From IMG/VR virus record IMGVR_UViG_3300048861_000143, positions 25,078 through 89,077 of that record: DNA of 64,000 nucleotides. One strand, written 5' to 3'. The translations under genes and the position numbers were made by a program. Numbering within the stretch: position 1 is the stretch's first letter; the number at the start of each line of letters is the position of its first letter. Positions 43,284 through 58,483 of the stretch are shown here, piece by piece. The notes beneath the pieces were generated by a model. It was not told where the DNA came from, made no database searches, and saw nothing but the letters and a program-made list of their open reading frames with translations. The DNA comes from a virus.

Positions 43284-43390
43284 CGTTCGATAATGCCCGT
43301 TTCCGAACGTCACGCGTCCGTGATCACTCGCTGCGCCTCCCTGGCAATCGTGCCGGACCCGATCCGGATTCAAGTTTGAGCACGTGCTCC

Positions 43391-43446
43391 GGACATAATG
43401 TCCATACCGACCCGGCAATCCGGGCATATCGCGGACATTATGTCCG
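43391..43446. promoter_or_regulatory. Two operator-like palindromes GGACAT-W-ATGTCC
   Basis: GGACATAATGTCC 43391-43403; CGGACATTATGTCCG 43432-43446. Confidence 0.65.
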
Positions 43447-43600
43447 ATCCCAGCCTCAGCGAACGCACGCGCACATATACGCGCGCGCGCACGTGTGCCT
43501 GATCGCGCGCGCGACGCGGGCAAGCCCGGACAGGCACCAGACGCCAAATCGCCTCGCGAACCAGTTACCAGATTTATTCGTCTTTCCAGTGACCTAGCGC

Positions 43601-43629
43601 TTGCAAAGACGCCACCGTGGCGTCATTCT
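43601..43629 (+). promoter_or_regulatory. Sigma70-like promoter with palindromic operator in the spacer
   Basis: TTGCAA-N17-CATTCT; GACGCCAC-C-GTGGCGTC at 43608-43624. Confidence 0.6.
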
Positions 43630-43635
43630 CCCGTT

Positions 43636-44160
43636 GTCAGCAAGGCACGGCGGGACGGGTTCCCAGGGTAGAGAGGAGTTGCCAAGCGGACGGACGGGAC
43701 AGGATCGGAACCCTGTCAACGTTCACTTGCCCACCCTGATCTTTGACATACCACCGACGCTTGCCGGTAAGCGGGTCGCGGGATGAATAGGAGGGTTCAC
43801 TGCATCGGGTTTCCCCTTTGCGGAGTGCCTACAGGATACAGGGGCGGAAGCTCCCTGGTTACGTCCAGTCTGCTACCGACGCCACACGGACAAGGCGTTA
43901 GGCGCATGACTGCAAGCCTGTAGGTCCGCACGGATTAGGAAGCCGGACAGTCAACCCGACGCATAAGTCTGACAGTGCGCTGTGTGAGAGATGGCGCGTC
44001 AGATGGAGCGTTACCGGCAACGGTAGCGCGATCGGGCGGTAATCAGGTCGCCCGATGGAAGCACTCCAACGGAAGGAATGACGGAACGAAGCCGCGTCAC
44101 GCGATGGCGCGGCAGGTTCCCCACAATCCGCGTCAGTGGGGCGCGGATTATGGGGAGCTG
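43636..44160 (+). ncRNA. Candidate large structured RNA / leader
   Basis: About ten helices by eye, including a 14-bp bulged stem (43819-43835 / 43917-43930) and GNRA loops (GGAA 43846-43849, GCAA 44017-44020). Confidence 0.45.
44031..44056 (+). promoter_or_regulatory. Early-arm hairpin element copy 1
   Basis: ATCGGGCGG-TAATCAGG-TCGCCCGAT; RBS and ATG at 44078. Confidence 0.8.
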
Positions 44161-44165
44161 TTCAT

Positions 44166-44399
44166 ATGCTGAACGTTGAAATCACGATGCGGCCCGCCCG
44201 TGGCGGTGTTGAGATATGCGCATTCGAAGCGTCAAGCGTGGCGGTCGCGATGCAAGTTGCGGCGGAAGCGTTGGCGGATCGTCAGGATTTGCGGAGCGTT
44301 GTCGTGGAAATCGGCCCTATCACCGATCAAAGCGCGACCGACGCGGAAGTGGATGGCGCGACGCTGGAGGCGGAAGCCCCGGCCGACGGAGAGATCTAA
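44166..44399 (+). CDS. Hypothetical acidic protein
   Basis: MLNVEITMRPARGG...; GGGGAG RBS. Confidence 0.6.
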   Translation: MLNVEITMRPARGGVEICAFEASSVAVAMQVAAEALADRQDLRSVVVEIGPITDQSATDAEVDGATLEAEAPADGEI

Positions 44400-44511
44400 G
44401 CCTATGCGGGCGCGGCTTCCGGGTCGCGTCCCGGGGTTCCCACAACGCTTGGCGGACTGGAACGCGCGCGGGCTTCGGACCGTGGCGCTTTCCAGCCTGC
44501 GAAAGCGGGAC

Positions 44512-44531
44512 GCGCGGTAATCGGGCCGCGC
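44512..44531 (+). promoter_or_regulatory. Early-arm hairpin element copy 2
   Basis: GCGCGG-TAATCGGG-CCGCGC; ATG at 44552. Confidence 0.85.
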
Positions 44532-44551
44532 TGCAAACGGAGGATTGGACA

Positions 44552-45226
44552 ATGGCGGACTATGAAAGCCGGGCCGAGGCGGAACAGGCTCTTACTGACT
44601 CCGACCTGCCCGTGGGCTCCCACGTGGAGATGAACCATGCGGAGCGGTACGAGCTCCGCTTGCCGGATGGTTCTCTGCCCGAGGCTCAGGACGCGGCCGC
44701 GGCGGCGGGCGACAAGCCCAAGGCCGAACGCAAGGCAATCACGTTCCACGCGGTGGCGCAGGAGGGCGATTTGGCTTTCCGCCTCCCCGAAGGCGCGGGC
44801 ATTCCGGCGGCGGAGTTGCAGGCGCTGGTTATGCAGATGGCGCGCCGGTTCGGCATCCCGCTGGACGTGGTTGATCCGACCACCGGCAACACGGTTCGGA
44901 CCGTCCAGCCTGGCGAAAAGGCGGAGCGCGCGGCACGGATTGCCGTTCCGACGGAGGCGCAAAAGGTAATCATCAGCCTTTGCACGCGGCCCGAGGGCGC
45001 GGACACGTTCGCGCTTTTCCAGGGTGGCGCCGCGCCGGGCGGGAAGTTCAACACGATTGCATGGTGGCAGCACGTGAAGGCTTGCGAGAAGTTCGGGTAC
45101 GTGGCGCACAAGTCAGCCACGATCAAAAACAACAAGCCGATCTCGGTCTATCACCTCTCCCCAATCGCGGGACAGAACGAAGCGGACGTGGAGGCGGACC
45201 CGGAATACCGGCTTGCGGCGGACTGA
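44552..45226 (+). CDS. Hypothetical protein with winged-helix-like C-terminus (paralog of 51640-52335)
   Basis: MADYESRAEAEQAL...IISLCTRPEGA...KPISVYHL. Confidence 0.7.
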   Translation: MADYESRAEAEQALTDSDLPVGSHVEMNHAERYELRLPDGSLPEAQDAAAAAGDKPKAERKAITFHAVAQEGDLAFRLPEGAGIPAAELQALVMQMARRFGIPLDVVDPTTGNTVRTVQPGEKAERAARIAVPTEAQKVIISLCTRPEGADTFALFQGGAAPGGKFNTIAWWQHVKACEKFGYVAHKSATIKNNKPISVYHLSPIAGQNEADVEADPEYRLAAD

Positions 45227-45269
45227 TCGGCACGGAACGGGCGGGCTTCGGCCTGCCCGCTCCCGACAC

Positions 45270-45295
45270 AACGGGCGGTAATCGGGCCGCCCGTT
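45270..45295 (+). promoter_or_regulatory. Early-arm hairpin element copy 3
   Basis: AACGGGCGG-TAATCGGG-CCGCCCGTT; ATG at 45313. Confidence 0.85.
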
Positions 45296-45312
45296 CTGCG
45301 GGGAGCAAACCA

Positions 45313-45504
45313 ATGGCTATTCGCTTGCTGAACGACAACGATCCGCTTTTCAGCGTGATCGAAGAGGCGATGGAAACCGTCACGCTTTCGGAGGTCGCCG
45401 AGATTGCCGGCCTCGCGCTCGGGCAGATCCTGAGCCAGGCCGAGGCGCCGCAGGATATGACCGTCGGTGAATGGGGCCGAATGCTTTGCGGCGGGCAGGT
45501 CTGA
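45313..45504 (+). CDS. Hypothetical protein (63 aa)
   Basis: MAIRLLNDNDPLFSVIEEAM...; GGGGAG RBS. Confidence 0.65.
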   Translation: MAIRLLNDNDPLFSVIEEAMETVTLSEVAEIAGLALGQILSQAEAPQDMTVGEWGRMLCGGQV

Positions 45505-45507
45505 GCC

Positions 45508-45801
45508 ATGGGCGCGCCAATCCAGTGGCAGGACAAGCGGGAGGTCTTCGGCTTCCCGGCTTATGAGGCCGAGGTCAACGGCCACCGCATGACCGTGTGG
45601 CAGGCCGAGGTCGGAGTGTGGGGAGCGCAGGTCACGATCGGCACGCGCGAGGCGGAGGTCGCGTGCCGGAACAACGGGCACAAGGCGAAGGCGGCCGCGG
45701 TCGCGTGGGCGCTGGAGCACGAGGCTGGCAAGGTGCGGCTTGAACTTACCAGGCGCTTCGGGGCAATAGCCTGGCGTGTGGCCGAGGAGGTCGCGGCGTG
45801 A
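45508..45801 (+). CDS. Hypothetical protein
   Basis: 97 aa; operon-coupled. Confidence 0.65.
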   Translation: MGAPIQWQDKREVFGFPAYEAEVNGHRMTVWQAEVGVWGAQVTIGTREAEVACRNNGHKAKAAAVAWALEHEAGKVRLELTRRFGAIAWRVAEEVAA

Positions 45802-45876
45802 GCGTCGCTATCGTCAGCCTGTTCGATCAGACCTAGCGGGAGGCGCGGGCTTCGGCCCGCTCCTCTCTGGACAGCA

Positions 45877-45894
45877 AGCGGCAATTGGGTCGCT
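45877..45894 (+). promoter_or_regulatory. Early-arm hairpin element copy 4
   Basis: AGCGG-CAATTGGG-TCGCT; ATG at 45915. Confidence 0.75.
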
Positions 45895-45914
45895 CGCTTT
45901 CCAGGGAGGCTTGG

Positions 45915-46100
45915 ATGTTAGTGGTGATAACCGAGGGCGGAGGCTTATGGAGCTACACGGACGAGGAAAGCCTTCACTTCCGGATCTTGCGGGAGGAGGC
46001 GGCCCGAGGAACGCGCCCCAATTTCTATGATGTGTGGTCTTGGGACGAGGTCTGTGACGCTAAGGGCGCGGGCATGATCTCCGGCGAGGAGCTGGCATGA
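45915..46100 (+). CDS. Hypothetical protein (61 aa)
   Basis: MLVVITEGGGLWSYTDEE...; GGGAGG RBS. Confidence 0.6.
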   Translation: MLVVITEGGGLWSYTDEESLHFRILREEAARGTRPNFYDVWSWDEVCDAKGAGMISGEELA

Positions 46101-46363
46101 CCCCGCGCGGCCGCGTTCTGACGTGCGTTTTCTCGACTGGCGTGGCTTGGGCCGATCGGGAGCGCGAGCGCGATGGGGATTACGTCAGGCTGGCGTTCCT
46201 GCCGTTCGACACGCTCGAGCTCAAGGTTGCGCCGGACTGCCCCGAGCACCTCAAGGCGGGCATCCAGCGGGAGGCTGCGGCCGTCCAGGCTCGGCGCGGG
46301 CAGGAATACCAAATCTCGACCAGCGGCCAGACCGTGAGGCTCGGCCAGGAACGGAGGATTTGA
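46097..46363 (+). CDS. Hypothetical protein
   Basis: 88 aa; ATGA coupling. Confidence 0.6.
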   Translation: MTPRGRVLTCVFSTGVAWADRERERDGDYVRLAFLPFDTLELKVAPDCPEHLKAGIQREAAAVQARRGQEYQISTSGQTVRLGQERRI

Positions 46364-46602
46364 TGCCCAAGTTTACGCTCGTGCTCAAGGAGCACCGCAC
46401 CCAAATCCGCTACTTCGAAATTGAAGCGGAGGCTGACACACTAGATCAGGCGGCCGAACTCGCCATTGAGCAGTACGGTCAAGAGGACAAGTTTTTCGAG
46501 CAACTCGACGCCACGCTGCCGGACGATACCTGGTATGAGGCCGAAATCGCCCATCACGACGAGGCCGGCATCTATCACGTTCTGGTCCCAATGGACCATT
46601 AA
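46363..46602 (+). CDS. Acidic hypothetical protein (79 aa)
   Basis: MPKFTLVLKEHRTQIRYFEIEAEADTLDQA...; TGATG coupling. Confidence 0.65.
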   Translation: MPKFTLVLKEHRTQIRYFEIEAEADTLDQAAELAIEQYGQEDKFFEQLDATLPDDTWYEAEIAHHDEAGIYHVLVPMDH

Positions 46603-46793
46603 GGCGCAAGCATTGACCAAGTATAGGTTCGTGCAACACACGGACTGCGAGTTGGTGGAGGAAATGCACCTCCCCTCGCCTCCATCCGTGGGAGCGTATG
46701 TGCGGCTGACCACGGAGCTCGGGCACGTTGGCTTGTGGCTCGTGCGTCGGGTGACACCGCACCGAACCTATACCGAGGTCCGGGTCGAATAGG

Positions 46794-46812
46794 AGGCGGC
46801 AATCAAGCCGCC
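46794..46812 (+). promoter_or_regulatory. Early-arm hairpin element copy 5
   Basis: AGGCGG-CAATCAAG-CCGCC; AGGAGG RBS, ATG at 46831. Confidence 0.8.
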
Positions 46813-46830
46813 GCCTAGAAAGGAGGCACT

Positions 46831-47019
46831 ATGGATCCCCTATCCGAGACGTGGCTTCGCATCTGGTATCCGGGCGAGGAAGTGGATGCCCATGTCGCAG
46901 CGGAGCGCGCCAGGGCCGAGGCTGCCGAGCTCGCGCGGGAGTCGGCGACACTGGCTCAGTGGCGCGCCGCCTCGGCGGCTGGCACGCTCCACACGCTTCT
47001 CCCGCCCGACGAGCTCTGA
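46831..47019 (+). CDS. Hypothetical protein
   Basis: 62 aa; strong RBS. Confidence 0.65.
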   Translation: MDPLSETWLRIWYPGEEVDAHVAAERARAEAAELARESATLAQWRAASAAGTLHTLLPPDEL

Positions 47020-47029
47020 GGAGGAGCGC

Positions 47030-47371
47030 ATGACCGAAGACCAGATGGCGAAGCTGGAGAGCATCAAGAACTTCCACACTCGGTATGAGGTGGAGGTCGT
47101 GCGGACCGCTGACGGGGCGAGGCGGTTGGTTTGCTACACGCCACGCAAGAGCCGTCGCGGACTCGCTGACGCGATCGGCCAACGAGCCTCTTCCATCAAG
47201 GCGTTCTTGGGCCTTGGCGAGCAAGCGATGGGAGATTTTCGCGGCACCACGGAGTATCTCGTTTTCCCGAACGTTGGCTCGATACGGTTCTCGGGCCGGA
47301 CGCAACGGGACGCCATCCTCGCCGGCGAATTGACCTATGTGGTCGAGGAGGTGGCAGACAAGGCCGCGTGA
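47030..47371 (+). CDS. Hypothetical protein (113 aa)
   Basis: MTEDQMAKLESIKNFH...; GAGGAG RBS. Confidence 0.65.
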   Translation: MTEDQMAKLESIKNFHTRYEVEVVRTADGARRLVCYTPRKSRRGLADAIGQRASSIKAFLGLGEQAMGDFRGTTEYLVFPNVGSIRFSGRTQRDAILAGELTYVVEEVADKAA

Positions 47372-47429
47372 CACATCGGCAGCAGGCGGGGCGATGCTCG
47401 GCCTGCTGTCCATGCGCCATGCATGGGCG

Positions 47430-47445
47430 GCGGCAATCAGGCCGC
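47430..47445 (+). promoter_or_regulatory. Early-arm hairpin element copy 6
   Basis: GCGG-CAATCAGG-CCGC; ATG at 47467. Confidence 0.8.
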
Positions 47446-47466
47446 GGCCAGGTGGAGGCAATCGCA

Positions 47467-48027
47467 ATGACCGAGGAAGTCACATACGGGCTGCTGATCC
47501 AGCGGTTTCACCGCTACGGGTCGGAGCATGTCTCGGCGAAGGTAATGCAGAAAAAGCCCGGAGACGATTTCCCAACTCACATCGGAAGCTTCTCGTCGTG
47601 GGATGGTCGGTGGGACCTCGCCGACCTGGGCATTTACGGGATGGTCTCCGACGGCAGCTTCGGCAAGCCTGAGCACTTCCTGTGTGGAAGCGGGATCGAG
47701 TGGGAGGATACCGGCCGCGTGCCACTAGGCCGAGCGAAGGCGATGGCGAAGATGGCCGCCAAGATCGAAAAGGCGCTTTCCGCAGAGGATGCCCGCGAGC
47801 CTGGGGATATGTTCATGGTCCTGGCCAAGATCGCCGGCGCTCGGTGGGTGGCGATGCCCCGCGGCGGCGAGCCGAACGGATCATCTTCGCTCCGGGACGA
47901 GCGGTGGGTCTGGTACACCGTGCCCGAGGGACGGAACCGGTATCGCCAACTGATCCAGGAGGCCGAGGAGGCCGTCCGAAAGCGGATTGGCTGGAAGCCC
48001 AAGGCCGAGATGTCCGAGGCAGCCTGA
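47467..48027 (+). CDS. Hypothetical protein (186 aa)
   Basis: MTEEVTYGLLIQRFHRYG...; GGAGG RBS. Confidence 0.65.
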   Translation: MTEEVTYGLLIQRFHRYGSEHVSAKVMQKKPGDDFPTHIGSFSSWDGRWDLADLGIYGMVSDGSFGKPEHFLCGSGIEWEDTGRVPLGRAKAMAKMAAKIEKALSAEDAREPGDMFMVLAKIAGARWVAMPRGGEPNGSSSLRDERWVWYTVPEGRNRYRQLIQEAEEAVRKRIGWKPKAEMSEAA

Positions 48028-48081
48028 CGAGTTGGGAGCCAGCGGCTCGATCCGCTGTCTCCTCATGCGCCAGGAGCGCAG

Positions 48082-48105
48082 CGCTGCGGTAATCGGGCCG
48101 CGGCG
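48082..48105 (+). promoter_or_regulatory. Early-arm hairpin element copy 7
   Basis: CGCTGCGG-TAATCGGG-CCGCGGCG; ATG at 48121. Confidence 0.85.
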
Positions 48106-48120
48106 AGGTGGGAGATCCCC

Positions 48121-48891
48121 ATGGACCGAGAAGCCATCCTGAACCGCCTTCGCGCCTTGGCCGCGAGGACGACGGACAACGGATGTACCGAGGCCGAGGC
48201 GCTCATGGCCGCCTCCAAGCTGGCGAGCATGATGGACCGCTACGACTTCGACCAGGCCGACCTCGCCACATCCGGTGAGCCCGAGGAGGTGGTCAACAGG
48301 AACCACTTCGTCCCGCGCACGAAGACGCTGGGAAACCTCAAATTCGTGCTGAAAGCCACGGCCGAGTTCTGCGACTGCCGGGTGTGGGGATCCAATGCGC
48401 AGGTCGAGAAGCGTGGACGTGTCGAGGTTGGTGTCTACTTTGGGCGCGAGAGTGACGTGCTGATGGCGGTCTACCTTACGCACCTGTTCGAGACCGCTGC
48501 ACGTACGGGCTGGTCCGAGTATCGCGCCAGTCTTGGAGCCGTGCTCGATCCTGTCACGGGTCGGCCGAAGGCGAACGGCAACAAGATGGACCGAAACTCG
48601 TTCGAGTGCGGCATGATGAAGCGGTTGAGCGAGCGCCTGCGCGAGATGAAGGCGGCGCGGAATGCTCATGTAGACGATCAGACCGGGCGCACCGGACAGA
48701 GCCTCGTGGTCACGAAGAACCGGCTTGTCGAGCAAGCCTTTCAAGCGCTGTCGGTCAAGCTTCACAGCCGGAACTACAAGACGAGGTTCAACGTGGCTGG
48801 ATACGACGCGGGCCGAAGCGCGGCCGATCGGGTCAACATCACCACAGGGATCGGCGGCAGCTCGCGCCAGTCGGCGGCGTTGCTGACATGA
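48121..48891 (+). CDS. DUF2786 domain protein
   Basis: ILNRLRALAARTTDNGCTEAEALMAASKLASMMDRYD N-terminus. Confidence 0.85.
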   Translation: MDREAILNRLRALAARTTDNGCTEAEALMAASKLASMMDRYDFDQADLATSGEPEEVVNRNHFVPRTKTLGNLKFVLKATAEFCDCRVWGSNAQVEKRGRVEVGVYFGRESDVLMAVYLTHLFETAARTGWSEYRASLGAVLDPVTGRPKANGNKMDRNSFECGMMKRLSERLREMKAARNAHVDDQTGRTGQSLVVTKNRLVEQAFQALSVKLHSRNYKTRFNVAGYDAGRSAADRVNITTGIGGSSRQSAALLT

Positions 48892-48949
48892 TCCGCACGC
48901 TTGCATTGGCGCTGCTCGGACTCACGACGTTCAGGAAAGGAGGTTCAAT

Positions 48950-49399
48950 TTGCGTACCCTGACACAAGATGAAATCAAGGCCGCGCTCGCCACGCTGATT
49001 AGCAATGGCCTCACGTTTAGTCAGTGCGTGCAAGCCTTCCATGATCGCTCGCTCCCATATGAGAAGATCTATATCAGGCACGCGAAAACCAAGGCAGGCG
49101 AGGTCGAGGTAGACTCCAACGCCATAGTCTCGGTGAGCGATGACAACGGCGCCTACGTCATGGCGTGGCTCTGGGTGGCTGACTCTGACATCTGGAAGGG
49201 TCCGACCGACAGTGACGGCGAACCATGCCGGTTCGTAAACCACTACCACTGCGAGGAGTGTGACCAAACATGGTCGGACCAGTGGTCGTGCGCTTGCAAT
49301 GACGAGTGTCCTTCATGCGGCGCCGAGATCGAGCCAACCGAAAGCACTGAGCTGGATCTCGAGGGCAGTCCAATAGACGAGCTTGAAGTCACAGCCTGA
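48950..49399 (+). CDS. Hypothetical protein with Zn ribbon
   Basis: FVNHYHCEECDQTWSDQWSCACNDECPSCG. Confidence 0.7.
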   Translation: MRTLTQDEIKAALATLISNGLTFSQCVQAFHDRSLPYEKIYIRHAKTKAGEVEVDSNAIVSVSDDNGAYVMAWLWVADSDIWKGPTDSDGEPCRFVNHYHCEECDQTWSDQWSCACNDECPSCGAEIEPTESTELDLEGSPIDELEVTA

Positions 49400-49450
49400 C
49401 CGTTGGGGAGTGGCCGCCGAGTGCGGCCCCTCTCTATGGGCCAGCCCATA

Positions 49451-49472
49451 CGAGCGGCAATCGAGCCGCTCG
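49451..49472 (+). promoter_or_regulatory. Early-arm hairpin element copy 8
   Basis: CGAGCGG-CAATCGAG-CCGCTCG; AAGGAG RBS, ATG at 49489. Confidence 0.85.
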
Positions 49473-49488
49473 ACCAAGGAGAAATCAG

Positions 49489-49662
49489 ATGGCGAAGACC
49501 TCGAGGGTGAAAAATCGCAAGCGCGCGGCTGAAATGTTGCGTAAGCTCGTGGACGGCGAGTGCGGCGAGGGCCTCCGCCGGTCTGCCCTGCGGATGGCCG
49601 AACGCCTTGAAGGCCGGCCGGTCCCGCGGGTTCGCCAGATCGTTTTCCTCTCCAACTCGTAG
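49489..49662 (+). CDS. Basic small protein (57 aa)
   Basis: MAKTSRVKNRKRAAEMLRKLVDGECGEGLRRSALRMAERLEG...; below the ORF-track cutoff. Confidence 0.6.
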   Translation: MAKTSRVKNRKRAAEMLRKLVDGECGEGLRRSALRMAERLEGRPVPRVRQIVFLSNS

Positions 49663-49698
49663 CCGGGGGCGCATCGCCTCCGACCAGGATTACCCGAA

Positions 49699-50019
49699 AT
49701 GCGGAACGACAACATTCGCAGGCTGGCCGAGATGGTCAGCCGCCAGAGAGACGGCGAGCACGCCAGCAAGGTTGTGCTCGCTGGGTGTGTAGCGTGGCCC
49801 GAGCAAATGCGCCCGATCCTGGACATTCCCGGACTGTCCGAGAGGTCGCTTGCGGCGCTGGTGCCGATCGCAACCGGTCTCGCCTTGAGACGGCCGACCT
49901 GCCAGCCCCAGGTTCGAGCGATGTGGCTCGCAGTGCAGCGGGATCACCCTTCTGCGCGGCCAGCCGAGGATCTGCGGCTCCAAAAGCGTGACCTCGGCGC
50001 GCGCTACCTCTGCGGATGA
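49699..50019 (+). CDS. Hypothetical protein
   Basis: 106 aa ORF in operon orientation. Confidence 0.4.
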   Translation: MRNDNIRRLAEMVSRQRDGEHASKVVLAGCVAWPEQMRPILDIPGLSERSLAALVPIATGLALRRPTCQPQVRAMWLAVQRDHPSARPAEDLRLQKRDLGARYLCG

Positions 50020-50030
50020 GGGAGGAAATC

Positions 50031-50228
50031 ATGCCAGCAGACAAGTATGAGATCGACGCTGCGGTTCTGGGCTTCTACAGGGACGAGAACACGGGGAAGT
50101 GGAGGCACCCAGACTGCCGGGAGTATGCCACCACGAAGGCTCGTTACGCCGTTGAGGATTACGGCATGATCCAGGTGCAGAAGATACAGCTTGCCAAGGC
50201 GAACGAACCACGGAGACACACGTCGTGA
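50031..50228 (+). CDS. Hypothetical protein
   Basis: MPADKYEIDAAVLGFYRDE...; GGAGG RBS. Confidence 0.6.
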   Translation: MPADKYEIDAAVLGFYRDENTGKWRHPDCREYATTKARYAVEDYGMIQVQKIQLAKANEPRRHTS

Positions 50229-50301
50229 GCCCGAGCGCTCGCGCGCAAACGAGTTGATGTCTCCAGCCCTGCCGCTATCGTGGCGGGGCGCTGACGCATT
50301 G

Positions 50302-50335
50302 CCTTGCAGACGAGTGGATTGTCTCGTCTGCAAGG
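50302..50335. terminator. 13-bp perfect hairpin
   Basis: CCTTGCAGACGAG-TGGATTGT-CTCGTCTGCAAGG upstream of element copy 9. Confidence 0.55.
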
Positions 50336-50357
50336 TCATACGCCAGAACAGCGTAGG

Positions 50358-50381
50358 CGCTGCGGTAATCGGGCCGCAGCG
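50358..50381 (+). promoter_or_regulatory. Early-arm hairpin element copy 9
   Basis: CGCTGCGG-TAATCGGG-CCGCAGCG; ATG at 50402. Confidence 0.85.
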
Positions 50382-50401
50382 AAGCAAGAGAGAGTGGGCA
50401 C

Positions 50402-51580
50402 ATGCCGCTCGAGGTAACTGCAAAATTCGACGTTTCCCAGGACACGGGTCGCACCGACTGGTCGCTGTCGCGCCAGTGGGCGTCTCGCCCGAAGGACCAG
50501 CGCTTTGTCACGCTGGAAGAGATGCGGACCATGCTCGACGCGCGCTCTGCCAAGTCCAGCACCATCGACCTGCCGATCGGTCGCATCCGGCCCGAGCTGG
50601 ACAGTGACGGAGAGCTCGGGTTCGAGGCGGAGGGTAAGCTGTTCCGACCGACGAATTACAGCTTCCAGCAGCTCTGCCGTTCGATCGACGTGCCGTCATT
50701 CTTCCTGACGAACACGCTCAAGGACGCACCCTGGTTGGTGGCCGAAAACCTCCGGTACGGTGTCAAGGCGCACCCGGATCAGGACAAGGATGTTCAGTTC
50801 TACGTCTCGGGCGACAACCTCCGGGCCGTGACCGGCCCCAACTACGGCCGCATCGAAGATCGTGAGGTGCTGCGCGCGGCGATGGAGGCTTTCGCCGAGA
50901 GCGGGTGCAACTGGCAGGTGCCAACCGCATTCGCCCGGCCAGGGACGCCATACAAGTGCATTGACCCCTCCCTCGAGGAGACGACGCTCTACGCCTCCGA
51001 CCGGGACATGTACCTCTGCCTCGTCGATCAGGAGAACCCGATCGAGGCCGGCTTCATCACAGATCCCCGGACCGGGGCGCGCATCCCTGACCTCTATTCG
51101 CGGGGCGTCATCATCAAGCATGGCGAGTGCGGTGATCGGAAGGGCGAGATCTGGTCCTTCCTGTATCGCTGGATCTGCTGCAACCGCTCGATCCGCGAGC
51201 AGAAGCTGCTGCAGAAGCTCTCATGGCGGCACACCGCGAACGTGCGCGACCACTTCCACAGCAACGTGGTTCCCGCCCTTCAGGCGTTCGTCAACGGCTC
51301 GGCCGCTGGCGTGGCTGGAGCAATCAAGTCGGCACGCGAGGCAACCGTCGTGAGAACCGTCGAGGAGTCGATCCCCTGGATGGTTGAGACCCTGAAGATC
51401 TCGGCCGACAAGGCCACGGAGGTCGCGCGCATCGGCCTCGAGGAGGAAGGACGCCCGATCGAGACGCTCTACGATGTTGTGCAGGCAGTGAGCGCGTTCG
51501 CCCGCCGCATGCCCCATCAGGATGAGCGCGTCCTGGTCGAGCGCCAGGTTGGGCGCCTGCTCGACAAAGTCGCGGCCTAA
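50402..51580 (+). CDS. DUF932 family protein
   Basis: LSRQWASRPKDQRFVTLEE, LRAVTGPNYGRI, TLYASDRDMY.CLVD, R.ICCNRSI. Confidence 0.85.
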   Translation: MPLEVTAKFDVSQDTGRTDWSLSRQWASRPKDQRFVTLEEMRTMLDARSAKSSTIDLPIGRIRPELDSDGELGFEAEGKLFRPTNYSFQQLCRSIDVPSFFLTNTLKDAPWLVAENLRYGVKAHPDQDKDVQFYVSGDNLRAVTGPNYGRIEDREVLRAAMEAFAESGCNWQVPTAFARPGTPYKCIDPSLEETTLYASDRDMYLCLVDQENPIEAGFITDPRTGARIPDLYSRGVIIKHGECGDRKGEIWSFLYRWICCNRSIREQKLLQKLSWRHTANVRDHFHSNVVPALQAFVNGSAAGVAGAIKSAREATVVRTVEESIPWMVETLKISADKATEVARIGLEEEGRPIETLYDVVQAVSAFARRMPHQDERVLVERQVGRLLDKVAA

Positions 51581-51587
51581 GCAAAGC

Positions 51588-51607
51588 GGCGCACCGCGAG
51601 GTGCGCC
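51588..51607 (+). terminator. GNRA-capped hairpin followed by pyrimidine tract
   Basis: GGCGCACC-GCGA-GGTGCGCC just after the DUF932 stop. Confidence 0.5.
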
Positions 51608-51639
51608 ATCCCCTTCCCTCTGTTCCAAGGATTGCACCA

Positions 51640-52335
51640 ATGACCCACCCGAATGACACGTTCCGCTATGCCAGCCGCGGCGCTGCGATCGAGGCCGCGG
51701 AGATGGCCGGACTGGATCTCGACGATCTCGTGGTCAAGCAGCTCGGCGGCGTGTGGGGCTGGCTGGTGGAGGGTGCCGATGATGCCCCGCCTTCCCCGCC
51801 CCAGAACCCCGCCCAGACGGCCCCTGAGCCGTCCCCCGGGGTGGTTGTGCGGTTGCCGCCGGTGAACCGCCCGGCCCCCTCCCCTGCGCCATCAGTGAGC
51901 GCCACGATGGACCCTTCCCGTCAGCCTGAGCCGGGCGATCTCGTCCTCCAGTATCTCGGTCCTCAGCCGGCGATGGGCGCCATCCTGATGGCGGAGGAAA
52001 TGGCGAAGCAGCATGAAGGCTTCTTCGTCTTGAAGAATGCCATCACGGGCGAGGTGGTGAAGATCGTGCAGGGCAAGAAGCCACGCAACTCCAGCGGGCT
52101 CACCGCCGAGCAGCACGCCAAGATGATCGAGATGTGCTGCGACGATGGCGGCACCACAGCTCGTCGGCTGGACCAGGAACTTGGGGTCAAGAAGACCGGC
52201 CCGCAGTGGGTCAAGATCCTGACTGCCTGCGCCGACTACGAGTTCGATGGCAGCACTGCGATCCAGGAGAACGGACGCCCGACACAGGTTTACATCCTGC
52301 GCCGCAAGGCGGAGTTGGAAGAAAAAGCGGCGTGA
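51640..52335 (+). CDS. Hypothetical protein with winged-helix-like C-terminus (paralog of 44552-45226)
   Basis: MTHPNDTFRYASRGAAIEAA...MIEMCCDDGGT...RPTQVYIL. Confidence 0.7.
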   Translation: MTHPNDTFRYASRGAAIEAAEMAGLDLDDLVVKQLGGVWGWLVEGADDAPPSPPQNPAQTAPEPSPGVVVRLPPVNRPAPSPAPSVSATMDPSRQPEPGDLVLQYLGPQPAMGAILMAEEMAKQHEGFFVLKNAITGEVVKIVQGKKPRNSSGLTAEQHAKMIEMCCDDGGTTARRLDQELGVKKTGPQWVKILTACADYEFDGSTAIQENGRPTQVYILRRKAELEEKAA

Positions 52336-52672
52336 TGCGTCGGAGCGACCGGCCGGCGGGGAGCTTAGCTCCCCGAGTTCTGTTACTAGCCATGGCGACG
52401 GCGTTCCTCATCGAGGTGACGCCCGTTGACTGGCTCAACGACCTGATGACGAGCGAGGGCTGCGGCGGAGCGCCCGCAATCCAGATGGGATACCGAACGG
52501 GCTGGCGCTGCGATGTCCCGGACTATGGCAGCGCTCCTCCGCACAAGCGCCGGCATAGCAAGCGCGAAGACCGCGATACCAGGAGACGGGAGCAGGATTT
52601 CGGCCAGCGCTGAGGCCGAAAGGCATGGGGAGCGTGCGCGTTACGCGGCGCTCTCCCTATGCCACGCGAACA

Positions 52673-52692
52673 CTGCGGCAATCGGGCCGCAG
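52673..52692 (+). promoter_or_regulatory. Early-arm hairpin element copy 10
   Basis: CTGCGG-CAATCGGG-CCGCAG; GTG at 52714. Confidence 0.8.
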
Positions 52693-52713
52693 GAACGATC
52701 GGAGGAATGAACC

Positions 52714-52902
52714 GTGCCACGGTTTAACATCGAGGGAATCGTCCACCTCGCCGAAGGCTTTCAGATATCGGTGGAAGCCGAAGACGAAAGAGCCGCTGAG
52801 AAACTGGCAATGCGGATGCTCAATCGTTGTGCCTTTCGCGAAGCTGAGCTCCAGGAAGTGTGCATCTCGACTTGTCAAGAGGTCACATCAGAGAAGCGGT
52901 AA
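52714..52902 (+). CDS. Hypothetical protein
   Basis: 62 aa; GGAGG RBS. Confidence 0.6.
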   Translation: MPRFNIEGIVHLAEGFQISVEAEDERAAEKLAMRMLNRCAFREAELQEVCISTCQEVTSEKR

Positions 52903-52998
52903 CTTCACGCAACGGAACAAGCCCAGGCAACGCAAGGAGATAACTACCAGCGAGCGACGCCGCGCGGCTCTTTTGGGCTTGGCGCGCGCGCCGTTGGC

Positions 52999-53014
52999 GT
53001 GGTAATTTTACCAC
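52999..53014. promoter_or_regulatory. Operator-like palindrome next to TTGACG
   Basis: GTGGTAA-TT-TTACCAC immediately 5' of a -35-like TTGACG. Confidence 0.5.
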
Positions 53015-53049
53015 CTTGACGGCTAGGCGGGACACGAGAGATCACCACG

Positions 53050-53283
53050 ATGCAAGCAAAAGCACCTGAGAACCAGGACCTATTTGCGCCTTCGCCGTCG
53101 GCGCCAGCGGCGATCCGCGAGGAGTTCACAACAGTCGCGCAGGCGCACGCGTGGATTGACCGCAACGGTTGGCTTCCTCGCCACGGCGGCGGCTATGAGC
53201 GGGCCGGTTCAGGCGTTGGCAAGCTCTTCGGTGAGAAGAGCAAGAACAGTGACGCTACGGTGCTGGTGTTCGAGGCGCCCTGA
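53050..53283 (+). CDS. Hypothetical protein
   Basis: 77 aa. Confidence 0.55.
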   Translation: MQAKAPENQDLFAPSPSAPAAIREEFTTVAQAHAWIDRNGWLPRHGGGYERAGSGVGKLFGEKSKNSDATVLVFEAP

Positions 53284-53311
53284 TCCGCGCCCGTGCACCA
53301 CTACTCAGGAC

Positions 53312-53329
53312 TGCGGTAATCGGGCCGCA
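53312..53329 (+). promoter_or_regulatory. Early-arm hairpin element copy 11
   Basis: TGCGG-TAATCGGG-CCGCA; ATG at 53349. Confidence 0.8.
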
Positions 53330-53348
53330 ATCAAGCGAGAGCATCATC

Positions 53349-56300
53349 ATGCAGGGAACACCATCGGGTGCCATCGAGGGCTCCGCAGACACGCTGGAAG
53401 GCCCCGTGACCACTTCTCAACTCAGCTTCTTCTCTACTCATGCACCGGAAGCGGCCGACGTTCCGGCCACGGACTACCGGCTGTTCGGTCGCCGCGCCCT
53501 GGCCTCCGGCTGGAAAGCCCGGGCGCTCGACAACATCGTGGCGGTCGAGCTCTCCAAGAGGATCGAGAGCGAGGGCCGCCCGGCCACGGATGAGGAAAAA
53601 GACCAACTCATCAAGTTCGTCGGGTTCGGGGCCACCGAACTGGCCACGAGCATCATCTCTAAGCCGTTTCGTGCCGGGTGGGAGAAGATCGGCACGCGCC
53701 TCCACCGCGCGATTACAGCGGAGGAACTGAAAGAGCTCGCGCGCGCGACGCAGTATGCGCACTACACGCCCGAGTTCATCATCAAGGCGATGTGGAAGGG
53801 AATGCGCCGCCTGGGGTTCACTGGCGGCGCCGTGCTCGAGCCTGGGTGCGGAACCGGCCTGTTCCTCGCTCTCATGCCGGAGGGGATGAAGAGCCGGTCC
53901 ACCTTCCTTGGTGTGGAAGCGTGCTCTGTCACAGCCCGGATCTCGCGGCTGCTCTATCCCGAGAGCGACATTTGGTGCGGCGACTTCACGCGGGAGACGA
54001 TCCCGCCGGCCTTCGACCTGGCGATCGGCAACCCGCCGTTCTCGTCAGTCTCCATCCAAGGACGGGACGAAATCGGCAAGCTGGGCCTGTCTCTCCACGA
54101 CTACTTCATTGCCCGATCCATCGACGCGTTGCGGCCGGGCGGTCTCGCCGCCTTCGTGGTCTCCCGCTACACGATGGACAAGTCGGACACGACGGCTCGC
54201 GAGTTCATCGCCGACCGCGCCGATCTACTCGGCGCCATTCGGATGCCCCACGGCGCGATGAGCGCTGAGGCTGGGACCGAGGTCGTGGTTGACCTGCTGT
54301 TCTTCCAGCGTCGTGAGACTCTGCTCGGCGCCGACGCGGCGCGGCCCGAGTGGGTGAACGTCGGCCCGACCTACCTGTCGATCGACGGCAAGCCCGCGCA
54401 CATCAACGAATACTTCCTCTCCAACCCGCACATGATGTTGGGCGAGGGCGCGATCGTCAGCAGCCAGCACGGCCCGACATGGACCTGCAAGGGAAGCGTC
54501 ACCGACCTCGACATCCTTCTGGCCGATGCGATCCGCATGCTGCCAGAGAAGATCTACCAGCCAACGACGCTGCCTCGGCCGGCCCCGGCGGCCGGACCGC
54601 GCGTCCGGATCGGCACCGCGGCCGACCGCGCCCGCATCAAGGAAGGCAGCTACTTCGTCCAGGACGACACGCTTTTCCAGGTGATCGACGGCGCGCCTAT
54701 GACGGTGCAGGTCAAGGACGGAAAGGGCACCGAGGGTATTTTCAAGAAAACGGCCAAGATCATCCGCGGGATGATCGGGCTGAGGGATGCCGTCCGGGAC
54801 ATTCTCGCCGCTCAGGAAGCGGATCTACCCTGGCAGGAGCACCAGGCCCGGCTTCGGACGCTCTACGCGGGGTTCGTGCACGAGTTCGGGCCGGTCAACC
54901 TCACCACGGTCTCGGAGCGGCCGGACCCAAAGACCGGCGAGCCACGGCAGTATTTCAGATACCCGAACGTCGCGGCGTTCCGGGACGATCCTGACTGTCC
55001 GCTGGTGCAGGTCATCGAGGACTATGACCCGACCACGGGGATCGCAACCAAGGGTCCGATCTTCACTGACCGGGTGATCTCTCCTCCAACCGAGGTGATC
55101 ATATCCTGCCCTGCCGACGCCCTGGTCGTGGTTCTCAACGAGCTCGGTAAGGTCAACCTGGGCCGCATCGGGGAGCTGCTCGGGGTGCCGGAGCCAGCCG
55201 TCATCTCGGCTCTCGGTGACCTGATCTACCTGAACCCGTCATCCGGCGAGTGGGAAACGGCCGATGCCTACCTGTCGGGCAACGTTCGCAGAAAACTCGC
55301 GGAGGCAAAGGAAGCCGCGGCCACGGACCATCGCCTCGAAAGGAATGTGAAGGCGCTGCAGGAAAAGCTGCCCGTCGATCTGCTTCCGAGCGAGATCACC
55401 GCGCGCTTGGGCGCATCGTGGATCCCGGTGGATGTTATCGAAGCGTTCAGCCTCGAGGTGCTCAAGATCAGGGCTCGCGTATTCCACACGCCGGAGATCG
55501 GTCTGTGGTCAGTGGACGCGGCCGCGTTCAAGTCGTCAGCAGCCGCTCTTGCGGACTGGGGCACTCGGCGGCGCCACGCGGGCGACCTACTGCTGGATGC
55601 GCTGACGTCCAACATCCCGCAGATTTACGACACGATCAGGGACATCAACGGCGAGGTCCGTGTCCTCAACGTGAAGGAGACGCAGGCAGCCCAGGACAAG
55701 CTCGCGGCCATCAAGGAGGCATTCTCCGAATGGGTTTGGAAGGAGCCCAAGCGCGCCGATCGGTTGGCCGGGATCTACAACGAGACCTTCAACAACATCG
55801 TGCCTCGGTCATTCGACGGAAGCCACCTGGTGCTGCCGGGCGCGTCCGACACGGTGCAGCTCCGGCAGCACCAGAAGCGAGGCGCATGGCGCATGGTGTG
55901 CGCCGGCTCGACGTATCTCTCGCACGTCGTCGGAGCTGGCAAGACCATGTGCCTTATCGCTGGCTGCATGGAGCAGAAGCGCCTCGGCCTGATCACGAAG
56001 CCAATGATCGTCGTGCCGGGCCATACGCTCTACCAGTGGGCGCGCGAGTTCCTGCAGCTTTATCCGAACGCGAACATACTGCTGGCCGACGAGGAGAACT
56101 TCTCCAAGGAGAAGCGCAAGCGCTTCGTGGCGCGCGCCGCCACCGGCAACTGGGATGCGGTCATCATCACGCACTCAGCCTTCAAGTTCATCTCGGTCCC
56201 GACGGAATTCGAGGCCGGCATGATCGAAGCCCAGCTCGATACCTACGACGAGATGCTAGAGCACGCGGACAAGTCGGATCGGACTTCCGTCAAGAAGCTC

Positions 56301-58451
56301 GAACGTCTCAAAGAGGGCCTGCAGCGTCGGCTCGACGCCCTCTCCGCGATCAAGGACGATCTGCTGACCATCGGAGAGATGGGCGTGGACAGCCTTGTGG
56401 TGGACGAGGCGCAGCAGTTCCGCAAGCTGCCGTTCCCAACGAACATGAGCGGCCTCAAGGGAGTGGATCCCGAGGGGTCGCAGCGGGCCTGGGATCTCTA
56501 CGTCAAGTCCAAGTATCTCGACGAGCGGAACCCTGGTCGCGCGCTGTTCATGGCATCGGGCACGCCCATCACCAACACGATGGGCGAGCTGTTCACACTG
56601 CTCCGCTTCATGAACGAGCCGGCCCTGTTCGAGCGCAACATCCAGTACTTCGATGCCTGGGCGTCGTGCTTTGGTGAGACCAAGACGGAGCTCGAGCTTC
56701 AGCCGTCGGGGCAATACAAGGCTGTCACTCGGTTCAGTCAGTTCGTGAACATCCCTGAGCTGACGTCGATGTTTCTCGATGTGGCTGACGTCGTGCTCTC
56801 CGATGACCTTGCCCAGTTCGTGAAGCTGCCTGCGATACTGGGCGGCCAGCGGAAGGTATTGACCTTCGACGGCGGCTCGGGGTTCCGGGCGGCTCAGAAG
56901 CTGCTCGCGACCCGTCTGGAAAAGATCAAGCAGCGCTCAGGTAAGCCGCAAAAGGGAGACGACATCATCCTGACCGTCATCAATGACGGCAGGCTCGATG
57001 CGATCGACCTGCGTCAGGGCGGCCTTGCGAACAGCGTCAGGGTGCTCGGCAAGGACTCCTCGGATGGCTGGTATACCGAGGTTATGCGGCGTCTCAACAG
57101 CATGGAGGCGTTCGCCAACAACCCCGGGAACAAGCTGAATGGGATGATCGACAACGTCATCTCCATTTGGCGGGAAACAGCGAACGATCGGTTCGTGAAC
57201 CCGGCCAACGGCGAGTACTATCCACGTCCGGGCGGGGCTCAGATGATCTTCTGCGACATCGGAACCCCGGCCACTGCCGAAAAGCATGGGTTCAGCGCTT
57301 ACGACTGGATCGTGAGGCGGCTGGTGGCGGCTGGCATCCCGCGAGAGGAAATCGCGGTCATCCACGACTTCAACAAGCTCGAGGCCAAGCTCCGGCTGTT
57401 CAGCGCGGTCAACCAGGGCAGCGTTCGCATTTTGCTCGGTTCCTCCGAGAAGATGGGCACGGGCGTCAATGCGCAGCAGCGCCTCGTAGCGATGCACCAC
57501 CTGGATGCTCCGTGGCTGCCAGCCTTGGTGGAGCAGCGCGAGGGCCGCATCCGGCGGCAGGGAAACCAGAACGAGACGATCCGCATCTTCGCCTACGCGA
57601 CTCTCGGATCAATGGACGCCACGATGTGGCAAATTCTGGAACGCAAGATGCGGTTCATCGACGCCGTGATGCGCGGCGACAAGTCGGTGCGCCGTCTCGA
57701 CGACCTGGATACAGACAGTCAGGCAGATCAGTTCGCGATGGCGAAGGCCATGGCGAGTGGTGACGACCGCCTGATGCAGAAGGCGGGTCTCGAGGTGCAG
57801 ATCGCCAGGCTCCAGCGCCAGCGGGCCGCCTATTACGATGCGCAGTCGCTGATCCGGCGCGAGATCAAATACGCCGAGGAGTCGCTGCTCAGCGCCCGGT
57901 CGGATCTGGAGAAGATCGCTGCTGACGAGGCGATCATGCAGGTTCCGGAGCCGTTCAGCATCACGGTCGCCGGCGAGGTGCACACGGAGCGGAAGCCCGC
58001 GGCCGAATCGCTTATGGGCTGGATCCGGACCGCTGACCTCGAAAAGCGGGTCGGGACCTTCACGATCGGAGATTACGCGGGCTTCAAACTGGAAGCGCGC
58101 GGGTCTCGATACGAGAAGGCCAAGGGAGAGCTCGGCTACGCCCTGACCCTGAGGGTCATGCGGACCGGCCTCAGCAAAGGCGTGTACGACATGGACATCT
58201 CCGATCCGCTCTCGCTGCTGCGGCGGATCGAGCACGCGGTGGTTCCCGGCATCGCCGATCACCGCGCGCAAGTAGAGATGGTCATTGAGGCCGCCGAGAA
58301 GCGCATCGCTGAATTCAAGCCACGCATCAGCGATGCGCCGTTCGATCACCAAGCAGACCTGGACGAGAAACAGGAACGCCTCAGGGAGATCGAGGAGAGC
58401 CTTGCCGCCTCGGAGCAGGCGGAAACCCAGCAGGAGCAGAAAGCCGCCTGA
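53349..58451 (+). CDS. N6-adenine methyltransferase-SNF2 helicase fusion (DarB-like)
   Basis: LEPGCGTGLF, IGNPPF; helicase HVVGAGKT, VDEAQ, ASGTPITN, HHLDAPW..ALVEQREGRIRRQGN. Confidence 0.92.
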   Translation: MQGTPSGAIEGSADTLEGPVTTSQLSFFSTHAPEAADVPATDYRLFGRRALASGWKARALDNIVAVELSKRIESEGRPATDEEKDQLIKFVGFGATELATSIISKPFRAGWEKIGTRLHRAITAEELKELARATQYAHYTPEFIIKAMWKGMRRLGFTGGAVLEPGCGTGLFLALMPEGMKSRSTFLGVEACSVTARISRLLYPESDIWCGDFTRETIPPAFDLAIGNPPFSSVSIQGRDEIGKLGLSLHDYFIARSIDALRPGGLAAFVVSRYTMDKSDTTAREFIADRADLLGAIRMPHGAMSAEAGTEVVVDLLFFQRRETLLGADAARPEWVNVGPTYLSIDGKPAHINEYFLSNPHMMLGEGAIVSSQHGPTWTCKGSVTDLDILLADAIRMLPEKIYQPTTLPRPAPAAGPRVRIGTAADRARIKEGSYFVQDDTLFQVIDGAPMTVQVKDGKGTEGIFKKTAKIIRGMIGLRDAVRDILAAQEADLPWQEHQARLRTLYAGFVHEFGPVNLTTVSERPDPKTGEPRQYFRYPNVAAFRDDPDCPLVQVIEDYDPTTGIATKGPIFTDRVISPPTEVIISCPADALVVVLNELGKVNLGRIGELLGVPEPAVISALGDLIYLNPSSGEWETADAYLSGNVRRKLAEAKEAAATDHRLERNVKALQEKLPVDLLPSEITARLGASWIPVDVIEAFSLEVLKIRARVFHTPEIGLWSVDAAAFKSSAAALADWGTRRRHAGDLLLDALTSNIPQIYDTIRDINGEVRVLNVKETQAAQDKLAAIKEAFSEWVWKEPKRADRLAGIYNETFNNIVPRSFDGSHLVLPGASDTVQLRQHQKRGAWRMVCAGSTYLSHVVGAGKTMCLIAGCMEQKRLGLITKPMIVVPGHTLYQWAREFLQLYPNANILLADEENFSKEKRKRFVARAATGNWDAVIITHSAFKFISVPTEFEAGMIEAQLDTYDEMLEHADKSDRTSVKKLERLKEGLQRRLDALSAIKDDLLTIGEMGVDSLVVDEAQQFRKLPFPTNMSGLKGVDPEGSQRAWDLYVKSKYLDERNPGRALFMASGTPITNTMGELFTLLRFMNEPALFERNIQYFDAWASCFGETKTELELQPSGQYKAVTRFSQFVNIPELTSMFLDVADVVLSDDLAQFVKLPAILGGQRKVLTFDGGSGFRAAQKLLATRLEKIKQRSGKPQKGDDIILTVINDGRLDAIDLRQGGLANSVRVLGKDSSDGWYTEVMRRLNSMEAFANNPGNKLNGMIDNVISIWRETANDRFVNPANGEYYPRPGGAQMIFCDIGTPATAEKHGFSAYDWIVRRLVAAGIPREEIAVIHDFNKLEAKLRLFSAVNQGSVRILLGSSEKMGTGVNAQQRLVAMHHLDAPWLPALVEQREGRIRRQGNQNETIRIFAYATLGSMDATMWQILERKMRFIDAVMRGDKSVRRLDDLDTDSQADQFAMAKAMASGDDRLMQKAGLEVQIARLQRQRAAYYDAQSLIRREIKYAEESLLSARSDLEKIAADEAIMQVPEPFSITVAGEVHTERKPAAESLMGWIRTADLEKRVGTFTIGDYAGFKLEARGSRYEKAKGELGYALTLRVMRTGLSKGVYDMDISDPLSLLRRIEHAVVPGIADHRAQVEMVIEAAEKRIAEFKPRISDAPFDHQADLDEKQERLREIEESLAASEQAETQQEQKAA

Positions 58452-58455
58452 GCAG

Positions 58456-58483
58456 CGGCGGGTGGCGATCAGGCCACCCGCCG
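58456..58483 (+). promoter_or_regulatory. Early-arm hairpin element copy 12
   Basis: CGGCGGGTGG-CGATCAGG-CCACCCGCCG (compensatory GTGG/CCAC); ATG at 58504. Confidence 0.75.

Follow-up and report, generated by a model that had tools for sequence, protein, structure and literature searches.

The 64,000-nucleotide (nt) stretch of DNA analyzed here, hereafter termed the window, comprises bases 25078-89077 of the 149.8-kb virus record IMGVR_UViG_3300048861_000143, representing an uncultured soil phage, and contains an array of twelve small hairpins, each of which is positioned shortly upstream of the first gene of an early gene block. The stems of these hairpins vary freely while remaining complementary, and only the apex, consisting of two pairs and a six-nucleotide loop, is fixed in the window and in seven related contigs. 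Judged from these sequence features, the hairpin most likely represents a hitherto undescribed RNA leader signal.

Hairpin array of the window

A pattern scan of the window returned exactly twelve copies of the hairpin core, all on the plus strand and between positions 44036 and 58462, nine of which are exact. These are the twelve copies listed in the initial annotation of this DNA, and they were likewise retrieved by R1, a covariance model built on them, with scores of 31.8-39.5 bits as compared to 18.2 bits for the runner-up across 280 kb. The pattern GCGGYRATYRRGCCGC, with up to two mismatches allowed, gave 16 matches against an expectation of 3.69, and none of 100 shuffles reached 16. The late arm had been described as devoid of copies, which proved correct for the entire 149.8-kb record, the remainder of which yielded no additional core.

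According to the gene calls made in this study, the array includes 15 gaps of at least 50 nt, twelve of which hold a copy and one a degenerate copy, while two hold none; array genes that overlap, are tightly spaced or are translationally coupled are without a copy. The hairpin therefore does head nearly every early block, as had been proposed, and the reported distance of 19-26 nt between the end of the core and the start codon applies to all twelve copies (h01 to h12; Table 1) once the start of the gene following h04 is corrected to ATG 45915. A search of the twelve copies also found no shared upstream box, in agreement with the earlier statement that no common -35-like box is present. The initial annotation had furthermore placed terminator-like hairpins just upstream of the copies. 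GC-rich stems are indeed present at approximately nine to ten of the twelve positions, several of them with UUCG loops, but none carries a T tract and they are not canonical terminators; T-tract terminators in the array region number 13 against 11.4 expected, which corresponds to chance level.

Each of the window copies possesses a perfect stem of 5-11 bp and a 6-nt AATCRR loop, the exceptions being one AATTGG and one GATCAG loop, and this matches the hexaloop close to AAUCRR described previously. The minimum-energy fold is identical to the described hairpin in all twelve cases, with z-scores of -0.9 to -5.6 (below -2.7 in ten of them). At the pair adjoining the core, G-C, C-G, A-U, U-A and U-G are all observed, and the outer pairs are altered on both sides. 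The covariation score of the twelve copies amounts to 0.497, as opposed to 0.210 in shuffles, none of 500 of which reaches 0.497, which corroborates the notion that the outer stems differ in sequence yet stay complementary. A covariance search of positions 42000-64000 against Rfam returned nothing at E < 0.6 and no match on the hairpins, and the hairpin can accordingly still not be assigned to a known family.

A hairpin family confined to one phage lineage

No close relatives at the DNA level were found in phages, plasmids or IMG/VR, an exact-motif scan of IMG/VR produced single chance matches only, locus searches with single proteins retrieved nothing, and representative genomes contained only DUF932 proteins of 36% identity or less. 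A DUF932 subfamily (40-50% identity) led to seven metagenomic contigs, L032 to L038, which are distant relatives of the window and exhibit the same layout: the terminase and ParB-methylase genes occupy one strand, followed by a non-coding gap of 0.6-2 kb and by an array on the other strand. Their DNA identity to the window is 65-72% and is confined to large genes. The hairpin is carried by all seven relatives, with 73 copies listed in the eight elements including the window, and a model of the family produced 72 matches at E ≤ 0.05 in the 196 kb of these elements, 71 of which are on the sense strand. By comparison, no match below E = 0.5 was obtained in 1.37 Mb drawn from further viral contigs with DUF932, from plasmid regions and from the remainder of the record, and 1.39 Mb of alphaproteobacterial genomes gave just 11 scattered single matches at E ≤ 1; the two controls, 2.8 Mb in total, contain no array. 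The hairpin family is restricted to the phage lineage formed by the window and L032-L038.

Family stems measure 5-19 bp, and across the 73 copies 92% of stem cells are paired as compared to 56% in shuffles, with 207 double-sided changes against 73, where it should be noted that these copies were selected in part by requiring a stem, so that pairing of the inner pairs is inflated, while the twelve window copies were selected by core sequence alone and their outer pairs covary likewise. Common to all elements is the apex only, a 10-nt unit GC-AAUNGG-GC that comprises a G-C pair, a C-G pair and the loop AAUNGG. Among 72 copies, the first three loop positions are A (66 copies), A (72) and U (72), while the fourth position is free (C 32, A 17, G 16, U 7). 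The orthologous hairpins that precede the DUF932 genes possess unrelated stems and an identical apex, indicating that the compensation reflects real evolution and not the spread of copies alone. The structure is under selection, with the sequence fixed at the apex only, and since the stems covary freely while the apex alone is kept in the window and its seven relatives, the earlier proposal of a single-stranded structure, as opposed to a duplex protein site, is upheld.

Within any one element the loops and inner stems are alike, but they vary from element to element, e.g., AAUCGG in the window, AAUGGG or AAUAGG in L034 and AAUGGU in L032, and a copy is closer to the others of its element than to its orthologues. 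This pattern points to a reader encoded by the element, or to homogenization among the copies.

A putative RNA leader operator and its alternatives

The strand on which the hairpin forms is indicated by its wobble pairs. In the 219 cells of the three apical pairs, 18 G·U pairs were observed as against no A·C or other mismatch, and pairs 2 and 3, which are unbiased by selection, display ten G·U and no A·C, implying that the apical mini-hairpin must form on the sense strand. The end of the loop is located 26.0 ± 2.4 nt ahead of the start codon, and the stem extends to approximately 17 nt from it, immediately 5' of the ribosome-binding site. The leaders also contain a second motif, AUGCGCCAG, which was found 13-22 nt upstream in 19 of the 73 family copies where 0.2 occurrences would be expected; it usually follows a pyrimidine run and is often closed into a hairpin of 5-6 bp, for which compensatory variants are seen (ATGGGC...GCCCAT, ATACGC...GCGTA). 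UUCG-loop hairpins constitute an additional sense-strand, RNA-type feature of the same leaders. The apical G·U bias, the strict orientation, the location 5' of the ribosome-binding site and the presence of the UUCG hairpins and the AUGCGCCAG box together favor RNA over template-strand single-stranded DNA, the non-template DNA strand being a less likely alternative.

The best reading of these data, to which we attach a probability of roughly 0.4, is that of an RNA leader operator read by one factor, which is probably encoded by the element. The hairpins would then be RNA elements in the 5' leader of the first cistron of each early gene block, displaying the fixed apex on a short stem just upstream of the ribosome-binding site, with the AUGCGCCAG motif or a small hairpin preceding approximately a quarter of the copies. 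A single trans-acting factor, most likely an element-encoded protein, would read the apex and set translation initiation and/or mRNA lifetime for all anti-defence and early genes together, which would thereby constitute a post-transcriptional regulon. It is the action as RNA, the binding of a factor and the direction of the effect that we infer here.

A candidate for the trans factor is g2. No other protein is conserved at the head of all arrays, and the g2 gene itself is hairpin-headed in six of seven elements. The structural model of g2 is modest as a whole (predicted local distance difference test score, pLDDT, 66.6) and predicts a C-terminal winged helix, for which the score is 81-90; this part yielded weak matches to DUF3489, PadR and MarR and weak winged-helix matches in the PDB. 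The family alignment (A3) exhibits a conserved C-terminal tail, (K/R)(L/M)AAD (LAAD), and a shared winged-helix motif, RPEGA(T/D/N). A domain resembling the C-terminal domain of g2 was also recognized, by eye, at the C-terminus of the product of the gene at 51640-52335. In a more elaborate form of the operator model, an element-encoded protein, possibly g2, would recognize the AAUNGG apex as RNA and switch the whole anti-defence and early array on or off post-transcriptionally, each lineage would maintain a matched apex-reader pair, and newly acquired genes could be plugged in behind the 60-nt leader, which would act as an expression cassette for them; taken in its entirety, this elaboration is doubtful.

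Several observations weigh against an RNA operator. The mismatches of the outer stem (pairs 4-8) are strand-symmetric, with 27 G·U and 27 A·C, and give no evident sign of selection on RNA alone at these positions. The idea that the upstream pyrimidine tract or larger folds generally sequester the ribosome-binding site was rejected (5.42 versus 5.05 nt, p = 0.12), as this applies to just h03 and h04. An RNA-binding protein was not identified, and g2, as the only conserved candidate reader, looks like a DNA-binding winged helix, with the model score given above. An RNA-seq search found the sequence as RNA in no run, the only run that has it being the source soil DNA run. Finally, sigma-70-like promoters, which would put the hairpins within a transcript and were sought with the Escherichia coli consensus in DNA of 64% G+C, number 0 against 2.5 expected in 17.5 kb. 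A kissing partner or antisense RNA was also considered and rejected, as no sense-strand complement of the apex is present in the non-coding leader of any element, the sole exception being a chance-level 8-mer at 43498 that matches just the divergent h12.

Published analogues of such an arrangement exist, i.e., SAS, PeSL, stoperators, the Cluster O repeats and the T4 operators. In SAS, a linear motif of 13 bp directly adjoins the start codon and takes in the ribosome-binding site, whereas in the window the hairpin apex lies 24-31 nt upstream, the ribosome-binding site is separate and there is no sequence similarity. SAS and ESAS, the latter of which adds upstream inverted repeats, are nonetheless comparable in that, within a single phage lineage (Cluster K mycobacteriophages), a short motif with no function assigned recurs ahead of the start codon of some of the genes (PMC4351075). 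The proposed operator is akin to the T4 RegA regulon, where the initiation regions of numerous early messages are the targets of one factor, and to the T4 gene 43 operator, which is a short hairpin just 5' of the ribosome-binding site, as here, but a single site (PMC3014915). RegA sites, unlike the window hairpins, are unstructured and overlap the AUG, and no RegA homologue was detected in the element.

It is unlikely that the hairpins instead function as processing or stabilizing punctuation without a dedicated regulator, in which case the polycistronic RNA would be cleaved by an endonuclease of the host, either in the interval separating the conserved hairpin from the GC hairpin upstream of it or in the AAU of the loop, so that 5' and 3' hairpins protect the messages and the ribosome-binding site is insulated. 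The order of elements, a stable hairpin (often with a UUCG loop), the conserved hairpin and the ribosome-binding site, is what such punctuation would require, AAU is the sole A/U-rich single-stranded patch of leaders with a G+C content of 64%, and no internal promoters were found. A host enzyme, however, leaves the element-specific loops and inner stems unexplained, h05 and h12 are without an upstream hairpin, and perfect stems of 5-11 bp fall short of what RNase III requires, its early intercistronic sites in T7 comprising approximately two helical turns of duplex.

Antitermination of the nut type, with AUGCGCCAG acting as boxA, the hairpin as boxB and a small, fast-evolving N-like protein being reloaded on RNA polymerase at each block so as to read through the GC-rich hairpins between blocks, is regarded as quite unlikely. 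The bipartite combination of a linear box, present before some copies, and a small hairpin with a free stem and a conserved, lineage-specific loop resembles lambda nut, the GC-rich hairpins between blocks would provide the obstacles, and internal promoters were not detected. Lambda nut, however, occurs once per operon (one or two sites in lambdoid phages) and consists of boxA and a boxB with a GNRA-like pentaloop, whereas each array holds 12-20 copies with the hexaloop AAUNGG. The AUGCGCCAG box, besides being present in only about a quarter of the copies (19/73), is unlike the boxA consensus, the inter-block hairpins lack T tracts and termination at them is putative, the first small open reading frames (ORFs) of the arrays are not conserved among the relatives, and neither an N-like protein nor a NusG paralogue was found.

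Two further known signals were compared with the hairpin. Mimicry of RfaH ops GGCGGTAG or of the 530 loop of 16S rRNA (positions 527-534; GCGGUAAU) was rejected, given that GCGGTAAT occurs in the window copies only, that the stems of the relatives are unrelated and that no NusG gene or paralogue was found. ANTAR targets are composed of two tandem hexaloops with A at position 1 and G at position 4, whereas position 4 is free in the present family and the loop of the upstream hairpin is variable in length.

The initial annotation had also listed a hairpin promoter among the possible roles, and this suggestion has been weakened. A DNA hairpin of the N4 or plasmid Frpo/ssi type, extruded or single-stranded, would be recognized by a polymerase that starts approximately 10 nt downstream, producing short leaders with a ribosome-binding site only. 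N4 virion-polymerase promoters and Frpo/ssi are hairpins formed in DNA in a strand-specific manner and situated in front of anti-defence genes of the early or leading region, and the content of the array is likewise of the leading-region type; the record moreover holds a full conjugation system along with plasmid-type leading-region genes (DarB-like, DUF932 and DUF7168). The lack of sigma-70 promoters and the strand symmetry of the outer-stem mismatches could also be explained in this manner, as could the apex-to-start distance, which is nearly independent of stem length (slope 0.18), although this spacing does not discriminate DNA from RNA, since stems can grow outward from a fixed apex.

The promoter case is nevertheless weak, and we consider it improbable. 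Hexaloop stems of 5-7 bp are poor candidates for cruciform extrusion. The wobble of the apical pairs (18 to 0) is compatible with the non-template strand alone, whereas it is the template strand on which N4 and Frpo hairpins act, and the N4 promoters, which are read by the virion polymerase, have a 5-7 bp stem and a 3-nt loop, as opposed to the 6-nt loop, stems of up to 19 bp and sense-strand wobble seen here. Frpo is a long imperfect fold that mimics -35 and -10 boxes and is located on the transferred (template) strand (PMC11541004); stems of 5-11 bp are far too short for such mimicry, neither box is present in 72 aligned copies, and sigma-70-like sites are absent. Frpo is furthermore found in the leading region by the origin of transfer (oriT), whereas the array (genome 69-83.5 kb) is more than 40 kb away from the likely oriT, which is presumed to adjoin the relaxase gene at genome 122.5-127.1 kb. 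The nearest homologues of the coupling protein (T4CP) reside on contigs whose lengths match none of the hairpin-bearing relatives. Based on the distance from the relaxase, wobble that fits the wrong strand and T4CP homologues on contigs of other lengths, the hairpins belong to the phage backbone, while the conjugation block looks like an added module. A dedicated-promoter role is also disfavored because no gene for a sigma factor, a T7-type polymerase or NusG was found in the element, every large ORF being assigned otherwise (tail, fiber, hydrolase, methylase-helicase or relaxase); PF00940 (RNA polymerase) had no match in the record, but its control matched nowhere either.

A portable cassette boundary, i.e., a short homology patch for swapping small genes between phages, as proposed for the T4-type PeSL, with any expression role being secondary, is very unlikely. 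Array gene content varies greatly among the relatives while the module recurs before each block, and copies within an element are more alike than orthologous copies. The 10 nt common between elements are, however, too little for homologous exchange, and the strict strandedness, the regular distance from the start codon and the compensation within the stems all speak for a molecular function under selection. PeSL, the 17-bp palindromes of Cluster O and the stoperators of Cluster A are likewise dense, lineage-specific gene-boundary repeats of phage non-structural regions that have been linked to regulation and gene shuffling (PMC4351075), but it is their sequence that is conserved, be it that of a promoter box, of a dyad protein site or of an asymmetric duplex site, whereas here the apex alone is conserved and the stems covary. 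The attC-like cassette recombination site that had been suggested fails, as integron attC sites have R''/R' boxes at the base of the stem, a variable center and an adjacent IntI, whereas the window hairpins are conserved at the apex and free at the base.

Least probable of all is a duplex-DNA operator of the stoperator type. In this reading, a repressor, e.g., g2 with its winged helix, would occupy the asymmetric 10-bp core GCAATNGGGC and thereby halt elongation through the array while the element persists as a lysogen or plasmid. The core is indeed asymmetric, keeps one orientation relative to transcription and recurs many times between genes, the element, which has an integrase gene, is likely to be temperate, and a conserved winged-helix gene heads the array, yet a duplex site needs no flanking complementarity, and the stems covary strongly.

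Genomic context and implications

The minus-strand arm of the window (1-40 kb) carries the genes for the major head protein, portal, large terminase, tape measure, baseplate and fibers, while the array codes for a 1700-amino acid (aa) DarB-like methylase-helicase, a DUF932 protein, a DUF2786/DUF7168 protein and many small ORFs, and is followed by an integrase gene. The array genes are of the typical early or leading-region anti-defence type. In the relative L035 (14993-21167) the DarB-like gene encodes at least 2097 aa and yields a weak intein-splicing match within the helicase domain. The integrase, a tyrosine recombinase (59349-60356), is located at the far end of the array, and in L033 it is just another hairpin-headed gene. 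Pfam searches with ten small flanking and array ORFs returned no match. Downstream of h01, a 33-aa mini-ORF begins at 44078 and the first real gene at 44166. The positions of the hairpins and associated features are summarized in Table 1.

Table 1. Positions in the window of the hairpin copies, the non-coding leader region and g2.
Feature	Position	Strand	Description
Non-coding leader region	42900-44030		Approximately 1.1 kb without convincing ORFs; equivalent gap of 0.6-2 kb in relatives
h01	44031-44056	+	10-bp stem, loop AATCAG; heads array leader
h02	44512-44531	+	7-bp stem, loop AATCGG; 22 nt before ATG 44552 of g2
g2	44552-45226	+	224 aa; first conserved array gene in all relatives
h03	45270-45295	+	10-bp stem, loop AATCGG; outer helix GCUCCC/GGGAGC masks ribosome-binding site
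h04	45873-45898	+	Loop AATTGG, G·U in core; extended helix masks ribosome-binding site; start ATG 45915
h05	46795-46812	+	6-bp stem, loop AATCAA; begins 3 nt past stop codon of preceding gene
h06	47430-47445	+	5-bp perfect stem, loop AATCAG; upstream box ATGCGCCAT at 47412-47420
h07	48082-48105	+	9-bp stem, loop AATCGG; before DUF2786/DUF7168 gene 48121-48891; upstream box ATGCGCCAG at 48065-48073
h08	49451-49472	+	8-bp stem, loop AATCGA; upstream box ATGGGCCAG at 49436-49444, paired with CCCAT
h09	50358-50381	+	9-bp stem, loop AATCGG; before DUF932 gene 50402-51580; upstream box ATACGCCAG at 50338-50346
h10	52673-52692	+	7-bp stem, loop AATCGG
Degenerate 13th copy	52999-53014	+	GTGGT-AATTTT-ACCAC, 35 nt before ATG 53050; missed by both models
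h11	53312-53329	+	6-bp stem, loop AATCGG; 19 nt (20 from core end) before DarB-like gene 53349-58451
h12	58456-58483	+	11-bp stem, core swap GTGG/CCAC, loop GATCAG; 5 nt past DarB-like stop; last copy

The non-coding gap ahead of the array contains four iteron-like direct repeats, CGCCTCGGCGAGCCGT, at 43130-43560, as well as an AT-rich patch (43060-43095) and a perfect 14-bp inverted pair (43390-43446), and possibly represents an origin or operator region.

Outside the window, the record, which has a myovirus-like virion, also holds a full conjugation set, with complete type IV secretion genes, at genome positions 107144-127088 and 136978-137862. This set comprises a VirB1-like SLT, VirB4, a weak VirB5-like match, VirB6, VirB9, VirB10, VirB11 and a VirD4 coupling protein, together with a 1530-aa TrwC relaxase-helicase-primase and a ParA-like ATPase, and the block is situated between phage replication genes and tail-fiber genes. 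The record is a candidate conjugative phage-plasmid or, alternatively, an assembly chimera. Its first and last 157 bases are identical, indicating a circular or terminally repeated genome, while the collection lists it as linear.

Different elements were noted on plasmids. In Methylocystis and Sphingobium plasmids (L028:11860-11950, 13200-13290 and 15500-15600; L029:11890-11975), a distinct conserved element precedes DUF932, ParB and strawberry-notch genes and is made up of TAGAG.GAGAGG and, behind it, a long hairpin whose loop is rich in GAGAGAGAG. Rfam has no entry for this element, which may take the place of a leading-region single-strand promoter on these plasmids. The Roseomonas plasmid L030 contains a repeated box, GCGCCCTTGCCCC, and two hairpins before genes of the leading-region type at 5736, 7686, 11474, 15315 and 23344, and in L031 a near-identical element of approximately 90 nt precedes the genes at 5941 and 24042.

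The hairpin constitutes a clean case of strong covariation, with 73 copies, free stems and a fixed apex, that is held by no RNA database, and the natural compensatory variants of the family make its function directly testable with reporters. If the hairpin is indeed an operator, one small RNA-protein pair would control the anti-defence battery in a lineage with conjugation genes, and would offer a handle by which such batteries could be switched off.

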